Origin: an uncultured Candidatus Micrarchaeota archaeon
Lineage (GTDB): Archaea; Micrarchaeota; Micrarchaeia; Anstonellales; Bilamarchaeaceae
Reading direction: 5' to 3'
DNA length: 64,000 nt
Assembly: GCA_903835385.1 (NCBI GenBank)
Contig: CAILMQ010000032.1
Coordinates: 5,976-69,975, forward strand
The notes under the pieces were generated by a model. The model saw nothing but the letters and a program-made list of their open reading frames with translations. It did not search any database and had not been told where the DNA came from. Position numbers and translations under genes: made by a program. This document shows positions 3,525 through 49,668 of this stretch, in pieces. Position 1 is the stretch's first letter. Every line of letters starts with the position of its first letter.

Positions 3525-4496
3525 ATGATTAATATAGACGGTTCTCATGGAGAGGGAGGAGGACAAGTAATAAGGACCGCTCTCGCCCTCGCCGCAATCA
3601 CCAAAAAAGAGGTATCCATAGACAACATCAGGGCCGGGCGGCCGAACCCCGGGCTCCAGCCCCAGCACCTGGCCGCGGCGAAGGCCGTGCGCAACGTGTG
3701 CAGGGGAACGCTCGAAGGCGCGGAGTTGGGCAGCAAAAGCCTGGTCTTCCGCCCTGGAGAGATTGTCGGCGGAAAGTACGATTTCGACATCGGCACTGCC
3801 GGTTCTGTCACGCTCGTTGCCCAGGCGCTGATTCCCATACTTCTCACGGCATCCAAAGAAAGCGAAGTGAAGATAACCGGCGGCACCCATGTGATGAAGT
3901 CGCCGGGGTATGACTATTTCGAGAAGGTCTTCCTTCCTGCGATACGACTCATGGGAGCGAATGTGGAAAGCAGGATTGTCAGGCCCGGTTTCTATCCCGC
4001 AGGAGGCGGAAGGATTGAGATGAAAATAAGGCCCTCCAGGCTCGTTGGCAACGAAATCTGGCCAAAGGAGGAACACGTGAAGGTGCTCATCCGCCTGTCC
4101 CGGCTTCCCGTGCTGGTCGCCATACGCGAGAAAAAGATATTCGTCCAGAACGGCATCGAGGACGTCCGGGTGTTCGAGGACGAGGTAAGCTGCCCGGGGA
4201 ACTGCGTCACCGCCTGGGCCGGGTTGCTGGGCGCTTATGCGCTCGGGGAGAAGGGGAAGAAGTCCGAGGCCGTGGCCCGGGAGGCCTACGATGCCCTGAT
4301 GAAGGAGAGGAAAAACGATTCGGACGTGGACATGCATCTTGCTGACCAGCTGCTCGTCTATGCGGCGCTTGCTGAGGGCAAAACCTCGTTCAAAACATCA
4401 GAAATAAGCGGGCACCTGATGACCAATAAGGGAATAATCGGAAAATTCGCTGAAAAGAGGATAACGGTGGAAGGGAACAGGCTGGTTATTGGGTAG
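3525..4496 (+). CDS. rtcA: RNA 3'-terminal phosphate cyclase
   Basis: INIDGSHGEGGGQVIRTALALAAIT...IRAGRPNPGLQPQHL...GTAGSVTLV are RtcA signatures. The start was moved to the ATG at 3525, inside track ORF 3447..4496. Confidence 0.9.
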   Translation: MINIDGSHGEGGGQVIRTALALAAITKKEVSIDNIRAGRPNPGLQPQHLAAAKAVRNVCRGTLEGAELGSKSLVFRPGEIVGGKYDFDIGTAGSVTLVAQALIPILLTASKESEVKITGGTHVMKSPGYDYFEKVFLPAIRLMGANVESRIVRPGFYPAGGGRIEMKIRPSRLVGNEIWPKEEHVKVLIRLSRLPVLVAIREKKIFVQNGIEDVRVFEDEVSCPGNCVTAWAGLLGAYALGEKGKKSEAVAREAYDALMKERKNDSDVDMHLADQLLVYAALAEGKTSFKTSEISGHLMTNKGIIGKFAEKRITVEGNRLVIG

Positions 4497-10032: not shown

Positions 10033-10602
10033 TCACGCTGAGGCGGACGGGTACTCAGAAGACATTTTCCTGCTTTCCTTCCTTCCGCAATTACTACAGA
10101 TAAGGCTGCCATTTTTTAAATCCATTCCGGCCCTGCAGGCGCTGCAGTATGCCTTCATCACGCCGCAGTCGGGCGCGTTCACGGACACGTCCACGCCCGA
10201 GCGCTCTATCTTGGCTATCCTCGCCTTTATCACGTCACCGGTGCGCACCTCGTCCCTCATGTCGCGCACGTAGCTGTTCCTTATGGCGGTGACAGGCAGG
10301 ACTGCCGATACCTCGATGGCGGAGCCGCTCTTGTCCGCGTCGGCAACGGGCGTGCAGTCCAGGAACGCCTTGGTGGAGCTGACCTTGCGCACCATGCAGT
10401 AGAGCTCCAGGCCCACCTTTACCTGGGCTATGTGCCTGGTCTTGTCCCATCCCACCTCGACCCTGCGCTCCCGCTCCCGGACCTCCCCGAACGCGGACGA
10501 GTACACCTCGTCGTTCTCGGAGTATGTGTTCTCGCCCGGAACCACTTCTTCAGCGCCGGCTATGTATTCGCCTGGCAGCACTATTTTTTTTGTTTCTCCC
10601 AT
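10033..10602 (-). CDS. csl4: exosome complex RNA-binding protein Csl4
   Basis: N-terminal domain VLPGEYIAGAEE, an S1 domain, and a C-terminal zinc ribbon CSACRAGMDLKNGSLICSNCG. Confidence 0.85.
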   Translation of the reverse strand: MGETKKIVLPGEYIAGAEEVVPGENTYSENDEVYSSAFGEVRERERRVEVGWDKTRHIAQVKVGLELYCMVRKVSSTKAFLDCTPVADADKSGSAIEVSAVLPVTAIRNSYVRDMRDEVRTGDVIKARIAKIERSGVDVSVNAPDCGVMKAYCSACRAGMDLKNGSLICSNCGRKESRKMSSEYPSASA

Positions 10603-15378: not shown

Positions 15379-15927
15379 ATGGGTGGAGACGAAACCAGAT
15401 TGTTTGTTTCCGTGGAGGTTCCTCTGGGACTGCGGGAAAGGATAGCAAAACTCGCGCAGGAACTGCCCCCGGATGCAATAACCCCGGTCAGGCCGGACAA
15501 CATGCACCTCACGCTCAGGTTCATGGGCGAGGTTCCGGAACGCATGGCGGGCGACATAGGGCACAGGCTGCAGGGGGTGGAGTTTGCGAAGTTCGCGGTT
15601 TTGCTCAAAGGAGCGGGCGTTTTCCCAAGCGAGAGCTATGCCCGCGTCGTGTGGGCCGGGGCGGAGAGCCTGGAACTGGACGCGCTCGCAAAAAAAGTCA
15701 TTGAGGCGCTGCGCGGAATAGGAAAGGAGGAGGAACGCGGCTTCTCCGCTCACCTGACAGTCGCGCGCGTGAAGAGAAAAATAGGCGTGAAAGAATTTTT
15801 GCAGAGGCATGCAAACGAAGAGTTCGGCGCTTTCGTTGTGGAGCGGTTCTGCCTCATGCGCTCGGAACTCAGGCCGGGAACGCCGCCCAAATACACGATA
15901 GTCGAGGCGTTCGGCGCGAAGGGATGA
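15379..15927 (+). CDS. thpR: RNA 2',3'-cyclic phosphodiesterase (2H family, ThpR/LigT)
   Basis: Two H-x-T-x motifs (HLTLRF and HLTVARV) with RLFVSVEV at the N-terminus. Confidence 0.85.
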   Translation: MGGDETRLFVSVEVPLGLRERIAKLAQELPPDAITPVRPDNMHLTLRFMGEVPERMAGDIGHRLQGVEFAKFAVLLKGAGVFPSESYARVVWAGAESLELDALAKKVIEALRGIGKEEERGFSAHLTVARVKRKIGVKEFLQRHANEEFGAFVVERFCLMRSELRPGTPPKYTIVEAFGAKG

Positions 15928-28777: not shown

Positions 28778-28848
28778 GCGGTGCGGGGGCGAACAGGGGC
28801 GAGTAAATTCTTTTTTAAATTCTTCTTTGGGAAATAGGATGACCTATT

Positions 28849-28942
28849 GGGCCTGTAGCTCAGCTTGGTAGAGGATGAAATATCCACCAAAAGCGACGGA
28901 CTCTTAATCCGTGTGTCGAGAGTTCAAATCTCTCCAGGCCCG
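28849..28942 (+). tRNA. tRNA-Lys(CTT) with a 20-nt BHB intron in the D-arm (between positions 22 and 23)
   Basis: Exons assemble to GGGCCTG TA GCTC AGCTTGGTA GAGC G ACGGA CTCTTAA TCCGT GTGTC GAGAG TTCAAAT CTCTC CAGGCCC G. Intron 28872..28891. BHB: central helix TGGT/ACCA, 5' bulge AGA, 3' bulge AAA, inner helix GGAT/ATCC. Confidence 0.85.
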
Positions 28943-28964
28943 TGAAGACTTGGGAAAGGCATTA

Positions 28965-31178: not shown

Positions 31179-31580
31179 TTAGATGTCGAACAGGACCTGT
31201 ATCTCCCAGTTGTTCCCTTTTTTCTCAGCCCGGAACTCGTGGTAGGTCACCGCCTTTATTATGTTCCGGGGCGTCTTCTTCTCGCCGTACACGCGAACCG
31301 AGGCGGAAATCGCTTTTTCATCGAACGCGAGCACTTCGAGTTTTTTCGGCGTGAGCGGGCGTGTTTCGCATTCGGCGATGACCTGGGAAAGGAGCTGCAC
31401 CACCAGCTGCTCGGCGGTGGGCGCGGCGAAACTCAAATCGAACGATTCCTTTTCTTTCGCGTGCTCCGCGCCCATCTGGGTGAGCATGCCGTTGCCAACG
31501 TCCTCCAGCGCCTTCGCGAAGGTCGCATTGGTGCCGAGTATTATTATGTCCGAGCGGTGCTCGAGGAATTTGTATGCCAC
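31179..31580 (-). CDS. archease (RtcB ligase/tRNA methyltransferase chaperone family)
   Basis: YKFLEHRSDIIILG at the N-terminus and VTYHEF...WEIQVLFDI at the C-terminus are archease-typical. Confidence 0.75.
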   Translation of the reverse strand: MAYKFLEHRSDIIILGTNATFAKALEDVGNGMLTQMGAEHAKEKESFDLSFAAPTAEQLVVQLLSQVIAECETRPLTPKKLEVLAFDEKAISASVRVYGEKKTPRNIIKAVTYHEFRAEKKGNNWEIQVLFDI

Positions 31581-34095: not shown

Positions 34096-34116
34096 CGCCG
34101 TATGCATACATTATAC

Positions 34117-34369
34117 GGGCTAGAGTGGGGCCAGGGGTCCCAGCACCGCAAATCCCCTTAGGCGGCTCGAATGCCCGGGGCGTTGCCTGTTTCAGTTGCG
34201 CCTCTTTTCCTGAAGCGTAGACGTTCTGCCCTGTGTGGCGGAATGCCTCGTGAACCGGGTCAGGCCGAAAGGAGCAGCCCTAAGCGTTTCATTCCGTGCT
34301 CGCAGGACACAGAATCGAGCAGATGGACTGGAGCTCCACAGCTGTTTCAGCCGGCAAACCGGGAAGCCC
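34117..34369 (+). ncRNA. ffs: signal recognition particle (7S) RNA
   Basis: Helix-8 core GGGTCAGGCCGAAAGGAGCAGCCC with a GAAA tetraloop. Flanking helix-5 pairings: GGAATG/CATTCC, CTGTGT/ACACAG and GCTCGA/TCGAGC. The 5' GGGCT pairs with the 3' AGCCC. The exact ends are uncertain. Confidence 0.75.
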
Positions 34370-34414
34370 ATATTTCGTTAGTCTCCAGTTTTCAGTCTCG
34401 AGTTTTGCCTCAGG

Positions 34415-36301: not shown

Positions 36302-36475
36302 GGGCCCGTGGCGCAGCCAGACACGAGTCTCGTGTTCCGAGTTCCGTGTCCTGCAGTGGATAGCGCAGCAGCCCTCTAAGGCCGATTTGGGCCAAGGACA
36401 GCTGATGGTCACGAGTTCAAAAGTGCGGGGGAACTGGAAACAGGAAACCCTGAACTGGATTTCTCGTCGGGCCCG
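36302..36475 (+). tRNA. tRNA-Arg(TCT) with three BHB introns (D-loop, anticodon loop 37/38, T-loop 59/60)
   Basis: Exons give GGGCCCG TG GCGC AGCCTGGATA GCGC A GCAGC CCTCTAA GCTGA TGGTC ACGAG TTCAAAT CTCGT CGGGCCC G. Introns: 36319..36356 (38 nt), 36379..36399 (21 nt) and 36422..36461 (40 nt). Each has a 4-bp central helix flanked by 3-nt bulges. Confidence 0.85.
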
Positions 36476-38963: not shown

Positions 38964-39617
38964 GTGAATAGCTATCTGGCTGGCATCGATGAAGCTGGCA
39001 GAGTTTTGTGAAAACAAACTGCAAGCAGCGTCATCGGACCGCTGGTCGTGTGCTCCGCATTTTGCGACCGGAACAACGAAAAGGCGCTCAAGCGCCTGTG
39101 CAGCAAGGACAGCAAGCAGCTCAGCGCCAGGCAGAGGGAGGAGGCGTACTCCGAACTCAAAAAATTCTGCTCTTTCAGGTGGGTGGAAATAAGCGCCGCG
39201 GACCTCAACAGGCTCATGCCTGACATGAGCCTCAACGACATAGAGGCCAAGGCCATGGCAGACCTGTCAAAGCACATCAGGGAAGGCGACCTGATGATAG
39301 ACATGCCGGACCGCTATGCCTGGACATTCAGGAAGCGCATGGAGCGTTTCGGGGCCAACAGGTTCGAGGCCGAGCACAAGGCCGACGAGACCTACCCGAT
39401 AGTGGCGGCCGCCTCCATCTGCGCAAAGCTCACGCGGGACGCGAAAATAGAGCAGATACGGTCCCAGGTGGGCGATTTCGGCTCAGGCTATCCGTCAGAC
39501 CCGAAGACCAGGACCGCGCTCATGGACAAGCCCATGAGGGAGAAGCTGAAGCCTTTCGTAAGGGAGCGCTGGAAGACGCTGGAGAACCTGAAGCAGAGGA
39601 AACTGTTCGAGGAATAG
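38964..39617 (+). CDS. rnhB: ribonuclease HII, interrupted by a 21-nt BHB-type insertion carrying an in-frame TGA
   Basis: GTG 38964 (SD GGTGAGGA) gives MNSYLAGIDEAGR, then VL-stop (TGA 39009..39011). The same frame continues as ...SSVIGPLVVCSAF...DSKQL...HKADETYPIVAAASI.AK..RD...GSGYPSDP. Removing 39004..39024 gives GIDEAGRGSVIGPLVV. Confidence 0.8.
39004..39024 (+). other. candidate BHB intron within the rnhB coding sequence
   Basis: Outer helix 38987-38997/39026-39036 (10 bp, one A.G mismatch). 3' bulge AAG 39023-39025. Central 4-bp helix GCAG/CTGC (38998-39001/39019-39022). 5' bulge AGT 39002-39004. Inner helix TTTG/CAAA. Loop TGAAAA contains the TGA. Confidence 0.65.
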
Positions 39618-39923: not shown

Positions 39924-40652
39924 TCAGCCGCTCTGGTTGCTCTCCACCGTTATCGTGCCCTTCATCATCATGTATGTCAGTGAGAAATAGCCGAACGTGC
40001 CTTCCCTGTTCATCACCGTGACGGCCGATGCGCCGGACGCTATCACCTTCGTGTCGAAGTTGCCGGTGCTTGTCGCGGAGCGCGGGTATGCGCCGGTGTT
40101 CGTCCAGTTTATGCTGTCGCCGACTTTCACGGTAAGGTTGGCCGGGTTGTAGGAAAACGCCTGGATTTCAATGGTGTATGTCTCCGGAAGGTAAACCGGC
40201 GCCTGGTACTTCACCACATCGAACGTCACCGACCTCTTTATGGACGGCGAATAGGGCGTTCCGTCATTATTCACCAGCTCCACATCAACCGTGTGCGTGC
40301 CCAGGGGCACTGCCGAAAGGGTGTAGCTCTTGCTGTAGAAACTGGAATAGTCCAAGCCATCAATGCGCGCCCTGAAGTGGCCCTCGCCAGCATTGTTCTT
40401 CGTGCCGGAAGGCCTTACCTGCAGGTTCGAAGCCGACAGCGTGATGCTCACATCAACCGCGTCGTCGGTTGACGTTATGGAATCCCCCTGAACCGGTTCC
40501 ACGATTGTGAAGGATGGCTTTGGCGCCGGGGGCGGCTGCTGGGACGGCGTTACGTTGGTTTCGTTCTGCTGCGGCGTCCCCCCGCCGAGGCAACCCGACA
40601 GCAATACCGATACTGACAAGATGGCGAATAATACGAAAATCGTCCGGTTCAT
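39924..40652 (-). CDS. secreted cupredoxin-fold-like protein
   Basis: Signal/lipobox (LLSGC), a P/Q linker, and a C-terminal FSYNPANLTVKVGDSINWTNTG...GTFGYFSLTYMMMKGTITV resembling plastocyanin/amicyanin strands. Confidence 0.55.
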   Translation of the reverse strand: MNRTIFVLFAILSVSVLLSGCLGGGTPQQNETNVTPSQQPPPAPKPSFTIVEPVQGDSITSTDDAVDVSITLSASNLQVRPSGTKNNAGEGHFRARIDGLDYSSFYSKSYTLSAVPLGTHTVDVELVNNDGTPYSPSIKRSVTFDVVKYQAPVYLPETYTIEIQAFSYNPANLTVKVGDSINWTNTGAYPRSATSTGNFDTKVIASGASAVTVMNREGTFGYFSLTYMMMKGTITVESNQSG

Positions 40653-40716
40653 GTTCCCTCACCGCTCTTGCATATGCCTGGCACGGATTATAAAACTTCT
40701 TACGACGAATACTACC

Positions 40717-41379
40717 ATGGCGCGTGCGGTAGTGTTCGACTTCGACGGCGTGGTCGTGAAGAGCGAGCCGCTGCACTGCCGGACTTTCAGCGAGACGCTC
40801 GCCCCCCTGGGAATACGCATAGACCGGAGGCGCTGGTACAAGGAGTTCGCAGGCACCGGCTCGCACAGCATAATCGCCCGGCTGCTTGAGGAGAACGGAG
40901 TGAAGGCGGATATCGCTGCGCTCGTGAAATCGCGCAAGGAACGCTTCAGCGCCTGCGTGCGCCGGGGCGGGCTCAGGCCGACCAGGGGGCTTCGCAGGTT
41001 CCTGGCAATGATAAGAAAAAAGGGGATAATGACCGCCATAGCTTCGGGTGGGCACAGGGAGAACATCGAGCTCATATTGGGAAAACTCGGGCTGCTGGGG
41101 CAGTTCGATGCCATTGTCGGCTGCGAAGAGGCGAAGAACAGGAAGCCGCATCCGGAGATTTTCCTGAGAGCCGCGGAGCGGCTAGGGGTGCCTCCCGGCC
41201 AGTGCGTTGCCGTGGAGGACTCCATACCCGGCGCGGAATCGGCGAAAAGGGCGGGCATGGCGCTCGTGTGTTTCGATTCCCCGGCGAGCAAGTTTTTAAA
41301 TAACCCGTGCAGCAGAATGATAAACAGCTTCTCGGAGTTCCCGCTTGAGTTGCTGGATGGTTTCCATGATAAGGCTTGA
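40717..41379 (+). CDS. HAD-superfamily hydrolase (beta-phosphoglucomutase-like subfamily IA)
   Basis: VVFDFDGVVV (motif I), TASGG, K...PE.F and VEDS..G..SA..AGM (motif IV). Confidence 0.8.
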   Translation: MARAVVFDFDGVVVKSEPLHCRTFSETLAPLGIRIDRRRWYKEFAGTGSHSIIARLLEENGVKADIAALVKSRKERFSACVRRGGLRPTRGLRRFLAMIRKKGIMTAIASGGHRENIELILGKLGLLGQFDAIVGCEEAKNRKPHPEIFLRAAERLGVPPGQCVAVEDSIPGAESAKRAGMALVCFDSPASKFLNNPCSRMINSFSEFPLELLDGFHDKA

Positions 41380-42535
41380 GCTGGACCGGAAAAAGCGTTC
41401 CGTGAGCGTAAGGGAGCCGGCCGACGTCTCCTCTCTGCAGAACGGCTTCTACGGCCAGATGAAAAAGGGAGTGATAACGCTTTCGCCCGAGGAATCGCTT
41501 TACATAATGGACATACGGAACGGCAGGTGCTACGACGAAACCGGCAACGCCCTCACTTTCAACGGCCTCGCCTCGCTTTTCCTGAAGCAAAGAAAACTGC
41601 TGGCGCGCTATCTCACCTACAAGGACTGGAGGGACAAGGGGTTGATTGCGCGCGACGCAAGTGAGGCAACCGGCAATTACGGAAGGACGGCTATAAAGAA
41701 GTACACCGGCGGCAAGCTGGAACTGGATGCCTATTCGTTCGAGGGCGTGTTCTTCCCCGACGACCTGCTCACGGTGCTGGACGACGAGGTTGTCGGCAGG
41801 GAGCTATACGAGCGGCACTGGATAGGCCAGTTCGGGACCTACAAGGCCGCCCACAGGGGCAGGATAACCAAGCTCGACATCTACGAGACCGTGTTCCTGA
41901 TGAAGCACGGCGGGCTGCGGCTGGCGAACTCGGACCTCAAAAAGGTGGTTTCCGCGGCCTCCAAGCGCCTAAGGTTTTTCGCTGAGATGTACGAGGTCTA
42001 CGAGGACTGGATGAAGCGCGGCTACGTGGTGAAGAGCGGCTTCAAGTTCGGCACGCACTTCAGGATATATTTCCCCGGCGCCTCGCCCGTGCGGCTGGAG
42101 GCCGACTGGATGCACTCCAAGCACGTGCTCCATGTGTTCCCGCGCCGCGCGAAGATGATAATATCCGAATGGGCGCGCGCCATAAGGGTCGCGCACTCGG
42201 TGAAAAAAACGTTCATACTCGCTATTCCTGGCAAGGCCAGGGCGTCCAAAGCGAAGCGCCCTGTGCTGGACTTCCTCCTCTACCACCGCAAGGACGGCGG
42301 CATCGAGACGCCCAAGGACGGAAGCCCGAAATACCTCATGTACTCTCTTACCGAAGACGAGTACATAGGCGGCGAGGAGCTCGCCGGCGCGCTGGACGAG
42401 TGCAGGAAATTCGGCCTTGAGATGATAATGGCGATATCGGATAGGGAATCGTCGGTCACGCAGTACATGATAAGGCGCATCGCGCTTCCCGGAAGCGATT
42501 ACGAATACTTTGAAATTGAGTGGGTTCAGCCATGA
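41366..42535 (+). CDS. endA: tRNA-splicing endonuclease, long multi-unit form
   Basis: About 390 aa, roughly twice the size of a single EndA unit. Catalytic-unit signature GFKFGTHFRIYFPG...HSKHVLHV...HSVKKTFILA. An N-terminal EndA-like unit (YLTYKDWRDKGLIAR) and an extra C-terminal unit. Start ambiguous (41345, 41357 or 41366). Confidence 0.8.
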   Translation: MIRLELDRKKRSVSVREPADVSSLQNGFYGQMKKGVITLSPEESLYIMDIRNGRCYDETGNALTFNGLASLFLKQRKLLARYLTYKDWRDKGLIARDASEATGNYGRTAIKKYTGGKLELDAYSFEGVFFPDDLLTVLDDEVVGRELYERHWIGQFGTYKAAHRGRITKLDIYETVFLMKHGGLRLANSDLKKVVSAASKRLRFFAEMYEVYEDWMKRGYVVKSGFKFGTHFRIYFPGASPVRLEADWMHSKHVLHVFPRRAKMIISEWARAIRVAHSVKKTFILAIPGKARASKAKRPVLDFLLYHRKDGGIETPKDGSPKYLMYSLTEDEYIGGEELAGALDECRKFGLEMIMAISDRESSVTQYMIRRIALPGSDYEYFEIEWVQP

Positions 42536-42584
42536 ACCCACTGCTCTCGGAAATTGCGATTTCCTCGATAGAATGGGTCCAGCC

Positions 42585-43007
42585 ATGAACAAAAAGAGCG
42601 CGAAACCCGTAGCACAGGAAGACGCCATGGGCTGCGGAATCGCGTGCGTCGCTTTTGTATGCGGCACGAGTTACGGGCGAACCAGGAAGTATTTCGACAA
42701 ACCATGCAATGCCTGGAGCGCCGGTTACTGGTGCAAGGACATCGTGCACGCGTTCGCCAGAGTGGGAAAAATATACGCCTGGCGCCGCCTCAGGCGCAGA
42801 ACTGCGTATCCAGAAGGCTCAATTGTTTTCATAGCGCGCTCGAAGCGCTATCGTATGGGGCATTATCTCGCGAGGGTGGGGCGGGACTGGATGGATCCAT
42901 GGATGAACTTTCCTTCGATAAAAAATGTCCGCGCGGGTTTCCGCAGGCGCTTGCCGGGAAGGACGGTATACCTTATTTACCCGAAGAGCGCAAGCGCGCT
43001 GAAATAG
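42585..43007 (+). CDS. stand-alone peptidase C39-like (papain-fold cysteine peptidase) domain protein
   Basis: QEDAMGCGIACVAFV (Gln/Cys box) and a later GHYLARV (His), with spacing like C39/C39-like domains. Confidence 0.5.
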   Translation: MNKKSAKPVAQEDAMGCGIACVAFVCGTSYGRTRKYFDKPCNAWSAGYWCKDIVHAFARVGKIYAWRRLRRRTAYPEGSIVFIARSKRYRMGHYLARVGRDWMDPWMNFPSIKNVRAGFRRRLPGRTVYLIYPKSASALK

Positions 43008-45841: not shown

Positions 45842-45999
45842 CGGGCCCGACGAGAAATTCAGTTCAGGGTTTCCTGTTTCCAGTTCCCCGGGACATTTGA
45901 ACTCGTGACCTTCGCCTTAGGAGAGCGTCGCTCTATCCATTTCAGGCCTTGGCCTGAAAATCTTGGTCAGCAGACCGAGGCTAGCTGAGCTACGGGCCC
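45842..45999 (-). tRNA. tRNA-Arg(CCT) with two BHB introns (D-loop and T-loop 59/60)
   Basis: Reverse complement exons: GGGCCCG TA GCTC AGCTTGGATA GAGC G ACGCT CTCCTAA GGCGA AGGTC ACGAG TTCAAAT CTCGT CGGGCCC G. Introns at 45940..45982 (43 nt, central helix TCAG/CTGA) and 45856..45895 (40 nt, central helix TTCA/TGAA). Confidence 0.85.
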
Positions 46000-49531: not shown

Positions 49532-49668
49532 GGGCCTGTAGCTCAGCTCGGTTAGAGCGACGGTCTTATATGGCACGTTCTAATACACGGTTATTAGGAC
49601 GAGTCTGGGCTAGCCGTAGAGGGGTCAAGACCCCGCGGAAGTCCGGAGTTCAAATCTCCGCAGGCCCA
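49532..49668 (+). tRNA. tRNA-Ile(TAT) with two BHB introns (anticodon loop 37/38 and variable loop 45/46)
   Basis: Exons: GGGCCTG TA GCTC AGCTCGGTTA GAGC G ACGGT CTTATAA GCCGT AGGTC CGGAG TTCAAAT CTCCG CAGGCCC A. Introns at 49571..49611 (41 nt) and 49620..49640 (21 nt). The BHB-rule splice sites fix the anticodon as TAT. Confidence 0.8.

Follow-up and report, generated by a model that had tools for sequence, protein, structure and literature searches.

We analysed a 64,000-nucleotide stretch of DNA from an uncultured Candidatus Micrarchaeota archaeon (the window), which carries endA, a gene for an RNA-splicing endonuclease, together with interrupted tRNA genes and several genes for RNA end processing. 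At the endA locus, the listing of open reading frames (ORFs) gave a frame on the plus strand, open from a TTG, that spans 41345..42535 and encodes 396 amino acids (aa). The nearest database homologs are 389-392 aa long, and 33 aligned homologs have the consensus N-terminus MIKLELDRKK; these lengths and this N-terminus therefore make the ATG at 41366, from which a 389-aa protein beginning MIRLELDRKK would be read, probably the true start of endA. On the basis of the ORF, a match to Protein Data Bank (PDB) entry 4fz2 and the homolog N-termini, we annotate 41366..42535 (+) as the coding sequence of an epsilon-type, three-unit RNA-splicing endonuclease of 389 aa. Residue numbers throughout are those of the 396-aa frame that starts at the TTG.

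Two Pfam domains are recognised in the protein: tRNA_int_endo_N (PF02778) at residues 18-56 (E=7e-9) and tRNA_int_endo (PF01974) at residues 212-295 (E=4e-27). The best match among all PDB sequences is 4fz2_A (E=2.4e-135), with a single HMMER alignment that pairs EndA residues 10-396 with residues 4-387; this chain and 9w2k share one sequence, that of the epsilon2-type EndA from Candidatus Micrarchaeum acidiphilum ARMAN-2. The two proteins are 50% identical overall and collinear across three units and both linkers. On sequence grounds, this full-length identity settles orthology to the epsilon type, and very probably endA is an ordinary, intact member of the known three-unit epsilon2-type EndA of Micrarchaeota that removes the introns of this genome.

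The limits of the units were carried over from PMC3488258 via the 4fz2 alignment, and all lie on the plus strand. The non-catalytic, N-terminal-domain-like alphaN unit (41372..41653; residues 10-103, corresponding to ARMAN-2 4-97) is 40% identical to its counterpart and contains the PF02778 match. Linker 1 (41654..41737; residues 104-131) is the least conserved part, with 21% identity, and is followed by the catalytic alpha unit (41738..42226; residues 132-294), which is 60% identical to that of ARMAN-2 and matches PF01974. Linker 2 (42227..42271; residues 295-309) is 50% identical and 3 residues longer than that of ARMAN-2. The structural half-unit betaC (42272..42532; residues 310-396) is 52% identical and also has a weak match to the beta-subunit model NF007086 at residues 329-381.

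The residues known to matter in ARMAN-2 are all present, as read from the 4fz2 alignment on the plus strand. The catalytic triad consists of Y242 (42068..42070), H257 (42113..42115) and K288 (42206..42208), equivalent to ARMAN-2 Y236, H251 and K282; it is the sole Tyr/His/Lys triad of the protein and sits in the central alpha unit. The ARMAN-specific loop (ASL), GTYKAAHRGRI (41834..41866), aligns with GTYKVSEHGNL of ARMAN-2 and retains Y166 (41840-41842; ARMAN-2 Y160) and K167 (41843-41845; ARMAN-2 K161), the Tyr-Lys pair to which the broad specificity of the ARMAN-2 enzyme has been ascribed (PMC3488258, PMC12397907). The bulge clamp is formed by R281 (ARMAN-2 R275) and, in betaC, W393 (42521-42523; ARMAN-2 W384), and the dimer contact by K234 (ARMAN-2 K228) and, again in betaC, D366 (42440-42442; ARMAN-2 D357). 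All nine experimentally defined ARMAN-2 residues (Y160, K161, K228, Y236, H251, R275, K282, D357 and W384) are thus kept, and the same nine are invariant in 20 compared sequences that are 33-62% identical to this EndA. For that set, 20 orthologs were fetched from other Micrarchaeota families and L034 was dropped as a wrong ORF; the remaining 19 were joined by the PDB-derived ARMAN-2 sequence, which L041 (genome G021) also represents.

An AlphaFold2 model of EndA, built with the 33 homologs as input, has a mean pLDDT (predicted local distance difference test score) of 68 and a pTM (predicted template-modelling score) of 0.71. Its top fold matches are 9w2k_B and 4fz2_A (E ~1e-40, TM 0.62), and the best 39 matches are all splicing endonucleases. 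A sequence-only reading of the window had described an ORF of about 390 aa and proposed a three-unit, single-chain endonuclease of the ARMAN type. Both points hold: the frame contains the motifs it quoted (YLTYKDWRDKGLIAR, THFRIYFPG, HSKHV and HSVKK), and the architecture is borne out by full collinearity with 4fz2, a triad confined to the central unit, the Tyr-Lys pair of the ASL and the top fold matches. The delimitation of units by hidden Markov models and structure prediction, which that reading had called for, maps alphaN, alpha and betaC, and the fold search agrees with an epsilon2 enzyme.

We then looked at the distribution of the gene in 121 sampled Micrarchaeota genomes, all from one class. 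Whole-genome searches found one full-length epsilon EndA in 119 of the 121, and more than 120 database proteins of 388-442 aa, most of them 389-394 aa, are at least 70% identical to this EndA; several are named tRNA-intron lyase of Micrarchaeota. Judged by this gene content, epsilon EndA is the standard single-copy enzyme of the sampled Micrarchaeota. One protein, from genome G021, is 100% identical to the 4fz2 sequence, which identifies that genome as ARMAN-2; the host is classified in another order. The host genome itself comprises 1.29 Mb in 68 contigs at 56.7% GC and is 88.8% complete, and its DNA was detected in freshwater-sediment and peat metagenomes.

In one family, f6 (G061, G080 and G084), the epsilon EndA frames are shorter (341-362 aa) and much more divergent (38-44% identity), and only query residues 144-388 align with the G080 protein; in the f6 enzyme the three-unit architecture may have been reduced.

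The host genome contains only one other gene that matches PF01974, and it lies outside the window: a 168-aa EndA-fold protein at G000:C47:54953-55459 (locus L002:1456-1962, minus strand), with the Pfam match at G000:C47:54995-55231. Its model, with a pLDDT of 87, shows a full two-domain EndA fold whose best match is the alpha4 EndA subunit of M. jannaschii, 1a79 (TM 0.80, root-mean-square deviation 2.7 Å); against the Nanoarchaeum equitans structural subunit 3iey_B, TM is 0.73 (0.79 by target length). In profile comparisons, the paralog matches 1a79 (E=1e-16) better than it does the epsilon alpha unit (E=4e-8), so it did not arise by recent duplication of the epsilon gene. The position of the catalytic His is Arg or Lys in 34 of 34 aligned paralogs, within an invariant RPGED[RK]T that resembles an acidic L10 loop. 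The Tyr position is His or Tyr, with His in most of the 34, including the protein of the host genome; the catalytic Lys is retained and the C-terminal strand is conserved. The PF01974 search of the host genome (88.8% complete) found no other catalytic EndA gene and no gene for a stand-alone catalytic alpha subunit.

True small-ORF matches to this dead paralog occur in 39 of the 121 genomes, including 23 of 23, the host itself among them, in the host's own family, and the paralog was not found in ARMAN-2 and 12 other near-complete genomes. In the sister genera g3 and g4, the paralog and epsilon endA share a strand in 6 of 6 sampled genomes, with the paralog 0.4-2.7 kb upstream; the host genome carries the two on separate contigs. 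Elsewhere, the gene found beside the paralog most often encodes a bPH_2 membrane protein (15 of 26 loci), followed by RNase HI (12 of 26 loci), and a HerA-like ATPase is also found near it; in the host, the end of the bPH_2 gene overlaps the start of the paralog. The literature searched contained no mention of the 168-aa protein, which could be a structural partner, a pseudo-enzyme that binds bulge-helix-bulge (BHB) RNA, or something unrelated to splicing.

Could endA nevertheless be something other than an intact epsilon enzyme? That the gene encodes a two-unit alpha'2 homodimer of narrow specificity with an unrelated terminal fusion, the case that the sequence-only reading had named as its refutation, is extremely improbable. 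The protein is just modestly longer than alpha'2 enzymes and has weak NCBIfam matches to alpha'2 equivalogs; these reach 47-104 bits, where the cut-offs are 292-518, and are confined to the catalytic unit, whereas the terminal units match those of 4fz2, alphaN and betaC, at the identities given above and along the full length, the ASL insertion is present, and the clamp has the Arg/Trp pair of the broad-specificity types in place of Arg/Arg. An (alpha-beta)2-type enzyme was also considered and ruled out: a single ORF contains both the alpha and the beta-like units, and the other EndA-family gene has neither the catalytic His nor the Tyr. It is likewise very unlikely that endA is decaying or non-functional, with splicing carried out by an EndA encoded on unassembled DNA. 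The incompleteness of the genome would leave room for such a gene; on the other side, the endA frame is intact with all functional residues kept, one database protein shares 94% of its residues and more than 100 others share 70-89%, none of them truncated, and relatives have exactly one such gene each. Several observations do count against the assignment to an intact, self-sufficient epsilon2 enzyme. Lysines K241 and K244 of a second ARMAN-2 loop are Ser and Arg here (alanine mutants of both remained active in ARMAN-2; PMC3488258); the EndA model is of only moderate confidence, with pLDDT below 50 in the two linkers, in the ASL and in the loop that precedes the catalytic His; a further EndA gene may lie on the DNA missing from the assembly; and endA was found in no RNA run searched, the matches being to DNA metagenomes only. 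To these is added the possibility that, with a conserved dead paralog in the genome, the functional particle is not a plain epsilon2 dimer.

That last point has a more specific form, which we consider unlikely: in the host's family, the working enzyme would be not a plain epsilon2 homodimer but one with which the 168-aa protein associates, or which it regulates, as a structural or RNA-binding subunit. Its full two-domain fold, its strictly conserved L10-like loop and C-terminal strand, its presence throughout the family and in about a third of the phylum sample (39/121), and its place just upstream of the epsilon gene in g3 and g4 all speak for such a role. Set against this, ARMAN-2 and the 12 near-complete genomes do without the paralog, recombinant ARMAN-2 epsilon2 is active alone (PMC3488258), the two genes are on separate contigs in the host, the genes most often next to the paralog encode bPH_2 and RNase HI rather than epsilon EndA, and the dimer-contact residues of the epsilon chain are all intact. 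A related and likewise unlikely idea is that, in this and a small number of further families, though not in ARMAN-2, the paralog may dock to epsilon2 through its acidic L10-type loop or C-terminal strand, or bind BHB RNAs by itself, and so influence the choice of BHB motifs or the timing of their cleavage; the targets of such a combination could be tRNA introns, rRNA introns and the rnhB mRNA intron described below. If true, epsilon2 plus the paralog would make up a fifth composition of EndA, or the paralog would be a pseudo-enzyme that regulates splicing in archaea. Paralog and mRNA introns follow one and the same clade, and a correlation of the two would therefore carry no information. The paralog is the only lead here with some novelty, albeit one that lies outside the window.

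An intact epsilon enzyme would find substrates close at hand. ARAGORN in its default mode found zero tRNAs in the 64 kb, and Rfam two only; multi-intron tRNA genes were demonstrated by trial deletion of inserts followed by ARAGORN. The tRNA-Arg(UCU) gene (36302..36475, +) carries three introns, in the D-loop (~37-43 nt), anticodon loop (21 nt) and T-loop (40 nt), and is called by ARAGORN after the three deletions only; this call, together with a fold, is the evidence for the gene. The tRNA-Arg(CCU) gene (45842..45999, -) has D-loop and T-loop introns and is called after two deletions only; controls with zero or one deletion fail. The tRNA-Ile(UAU) gene (49532..49668, +; Rfam tRNA 49 bits, ARAGORN -i) has a 41-nt anticodon-loop intron and a second insert of ~20 nt in the variable region, which is inferred from the 137-nt length and from reading of the sequence; trial deletions in the variable region left the ARAGORN call unchanged. 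Finally, the tRNA-Lys(CUU) gene (28848..28943, +; Rfam tRNA 56 bits over 94 nt, ARAGORN -i) has one 21-nt intron, placed in the D-arm by reading of the sequence. After removal of its three introns, the anticodon loop of tRNA-Arg(UCU) is CCUCUAA, with C at position 33 in place of the near-universal U; that of its sister tRNA-Arg(CCU), CUCCUAA, is normal.

An mRNA also appears to be interrupted. In rnhB, which encodes RNase HII, a 21-nt candidate intron (39004..39024, +) with an in-frame TGA was recognised from the reading frame and the fold: the gene reads GIDEAGR[VL*KQTA]SSVIGP, so that the insert interrupts the GIDEAGRG motif, and its excision restores GIDEAGRGSVIGP (DEAGRG). The predicted RNA fold has two outer helices around a central helix of 4 bp, which is flanked by two bulges of 3 nt each. 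The exon 2 frame occupies 39048..39617, and the intron is 2.3 kb upstream of endA.

The sequence-only reading had counted eight tRNA introns, offered the rnhB insert as a candidate and held that the type of enzyme matches the intron load. The count is upheld (three in Arg(UCU), two in Arg(CCU), two in Ile(UAU) and one in Lys(CUU)), and the rnhB candidate has a textbook hBHBh' fold in addition to the restored motif. The match between enzyme and introns also stands, given D-loop, T-loop and variable-region introns in the window and a genome in which no other catalytic EndA was found. Genome-wide, ARAGORN reports 14 uninterrupted tRNA genes against ~20 plausible interrupted ones, a tally that misses multi-intron genes; the interrupted share agrees with the published figure of 56% for ARMAN-2 (PMC3488258). 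The sole other EndA-family gene lacks the catalytic His and Tyr, and therefore the epsilon enzyme must do the splicing, barring a gene on unassembled DNA.

How the enzyme would act can be drawn from the ARMAN-2 structures and mutants (PMC3488258, PMC12397907), and we infer the following mechanism by analogy. Two epsilon chains would form a homodimer, as the conserved contact residues D366 and K234 suggest, with the acidic L10 loop of betaC (D366) entering the basic pocket (K234, R281) of the partner's alpha unit; this would space two active sites to fit both bulges of a BHB motif. R281 and W393 of the opposite protomer would sandwich the first bulged base, while Y166 and K167 of the ASL would fix the ribose and phosphate of the bulge, rendering relaxed BHB motifs at non-canonical positions cleavable. 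By the same analogy, the enzyme is predicted to act on relaxed as well as strict BHB motifs, whether at canonical or non-canonical positions; among the substrates predicted for it are the eight introns of the window's four tRNA genes and the 21-nt BHB intron of rnhB mRNA. Cleavage would leave 2',3'-cyclic phosphate and 5'-OH ends, to be joined by the RtcB ligase with archease.

The components of this pathway are dispersed. RtcB is encoded on another contig (G000:C29:2774-4078, E=2e-166), and archease, its cofactor, in the window at 31179..31580 (-; PF01951, E=1e-21). Also in the window are the RNA 3'-phosphate cyclase RtcA (3525..4496, +; PF01137, E=1e-77), which provides pathway context and is unlinked to endA, a LigT/2H phosphoesterase (15379..15927, +; PF02834, E=2e-24) and Csl4 (10033..10602, -; NF034126, 149 bits against a cut-off of 90). 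The sequence-only reading had seen in the genes of the window an unusual concentration of RNA end processing. The genes themselves are real; the concentration is not supported, as they are spread over ~40 kb and both strands among unrelated neighbours, and the set was picked after the fact from the content of the window.

An archaeal genome carries dozens of RNA-processing genes, several of which are expected in a window of this size. The window makes up 5% of the assembly, and we therefore see no functional cluster here. The idea of such a cluster was rejected also for the arrangement of the genes, which are scattered and not operonic, with variable spacing and with RtcB elsewhere. In relatives that have both genes on one contig, endA and rtcA are 17-175 kb apart; in the two such genomes of the host's family the distance is 36-42 kb, which is ordinary conserved gene order. 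The rtcA gene is itself patchy, being present in 49 of 121 Micrarchaeota genomes, mostly of the host's own order, and missing in 72.

The direct neighbours of endA are the gene of a haloacid dehalogenase (HAD) hydrolase, an ORF of 165 aa that has no name, and genes for a cupredoxin-like protein and for a regulator of the TrmB type. The HAD-hydrolase gene (40507..41379) lies upstream, and the endA ATG at 41366 overlaps its stop by 14 nt; co-transcription of the two genes is therefore probable. At the other end, the 165-aa ORF (42510..43007, +) overlaps the 3' end of endA; it has a Cys-rich stretch (GCGIACVAFVCG) and no match in Pfam or NCBIfam.

Elsewhere in the window, a signal recognition particle (SRP) RNA at 34113..34373 (+) scores 77.6 bits with the archaeal SRP model, under its gathering threshold of 96.5, and 70.9 bits with the bacterial large-SRP model, over its threshold of 60, which suggests that SRP RNA is divergent in the host lineage.

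Taken as an epsilon2-type EndA, the enzyme mainly confirms an annotation: the rare three-unit enzyme described in ARMAN-1 and ARMAN-2 is the near-universal single-copy EndA across the sampled Micrarchaeota (119 of 121 genomes). The invariance of the key residues in 20 orthologs supports the ARMAN-2 structures as a phylum-wide model, and an enzyme of this type would explain how the genome tolerates tRNA genes in up to four pieces and a BHB intron within rnhB.

Among known systems, the closest is the epsilon2 EndA of ARMAN-2 (4FZ2, apo; 9W2K, RNA complex; Fujishima 2011, PMC3239211; Hirata 2012, PMC3488258; Miyata 2025, PMC12397907). Both proteins are of the same length class and have the same alphaN-linker-alpha-linker-betaC order; they share the catalytic triad, the Tyr-Lys pair of the ASL, the Arg/Trp clamp and the Asp/Lys dimer contact; and both come from the same phylum and from genomes with heavily interrupted tRNA genes, including tRNA-Ile(UAU). 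They differ in half of their residues (50% identity), in the order of the class to which their hosts belong, in the 57% GC and freshwater-sediment and peat DNA of the present host, in the 3 additional residues of linker 2, in the replacement of K241/K244 by Ser/Arg, and in the dead paralog, present in the host but not in ARMAN-2.

The (alpha-beta)2 enzymes of Crenarchaeota and Nanoarchaeum (A. pernix 3P1Z/3AJV, P. aerophilum 2ZYZ, N. equitans 3IEY) are heterotetramers with broad specificity like epsilon2. They likewise have an Arg/Trp clamp, a specificity loop with an essential Lys by the active site, and one catalytic and one structural module per half-enzyme; in contrast, their subunits are encoded by separate genes, where here there is one chain. 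Their similarity to this EndA is confined to the catalytic unit (E 1e-11 to 1e-13), and their CSL and the ASL are not homologous in sequence (PMC3488258). The alpha'2 enzymes of Euryarchaeota (A. fulgidus 2GJW/1RLV) are homodimers, as epsilon2 would be, in which each multi-unit chain contributes one catalytic repeat, and they have the same chemistry, but they have two units and not three, lack the ASL, use an Arg/Arg clamp and show narrow, strict-BHB specificity; with this EndA, their catalytic unit alone aligns (E=5e-21). The paralog, for its part, resembles the M. jannaschii alpha4 subunit 1A79 and N. equitans NEQ261 (3IEY_B/3IF0) in its two-domain fold, its L10-like acidic loop and the retained Lys position, and differs from them in the change of the catalytic His to Arg or Lys, in that of the Tyr to His in most members, and in its setting: a separately encoded catalytic alpha partner is absent from the host assembly, which has instead a self-sufficient epsilon chain.

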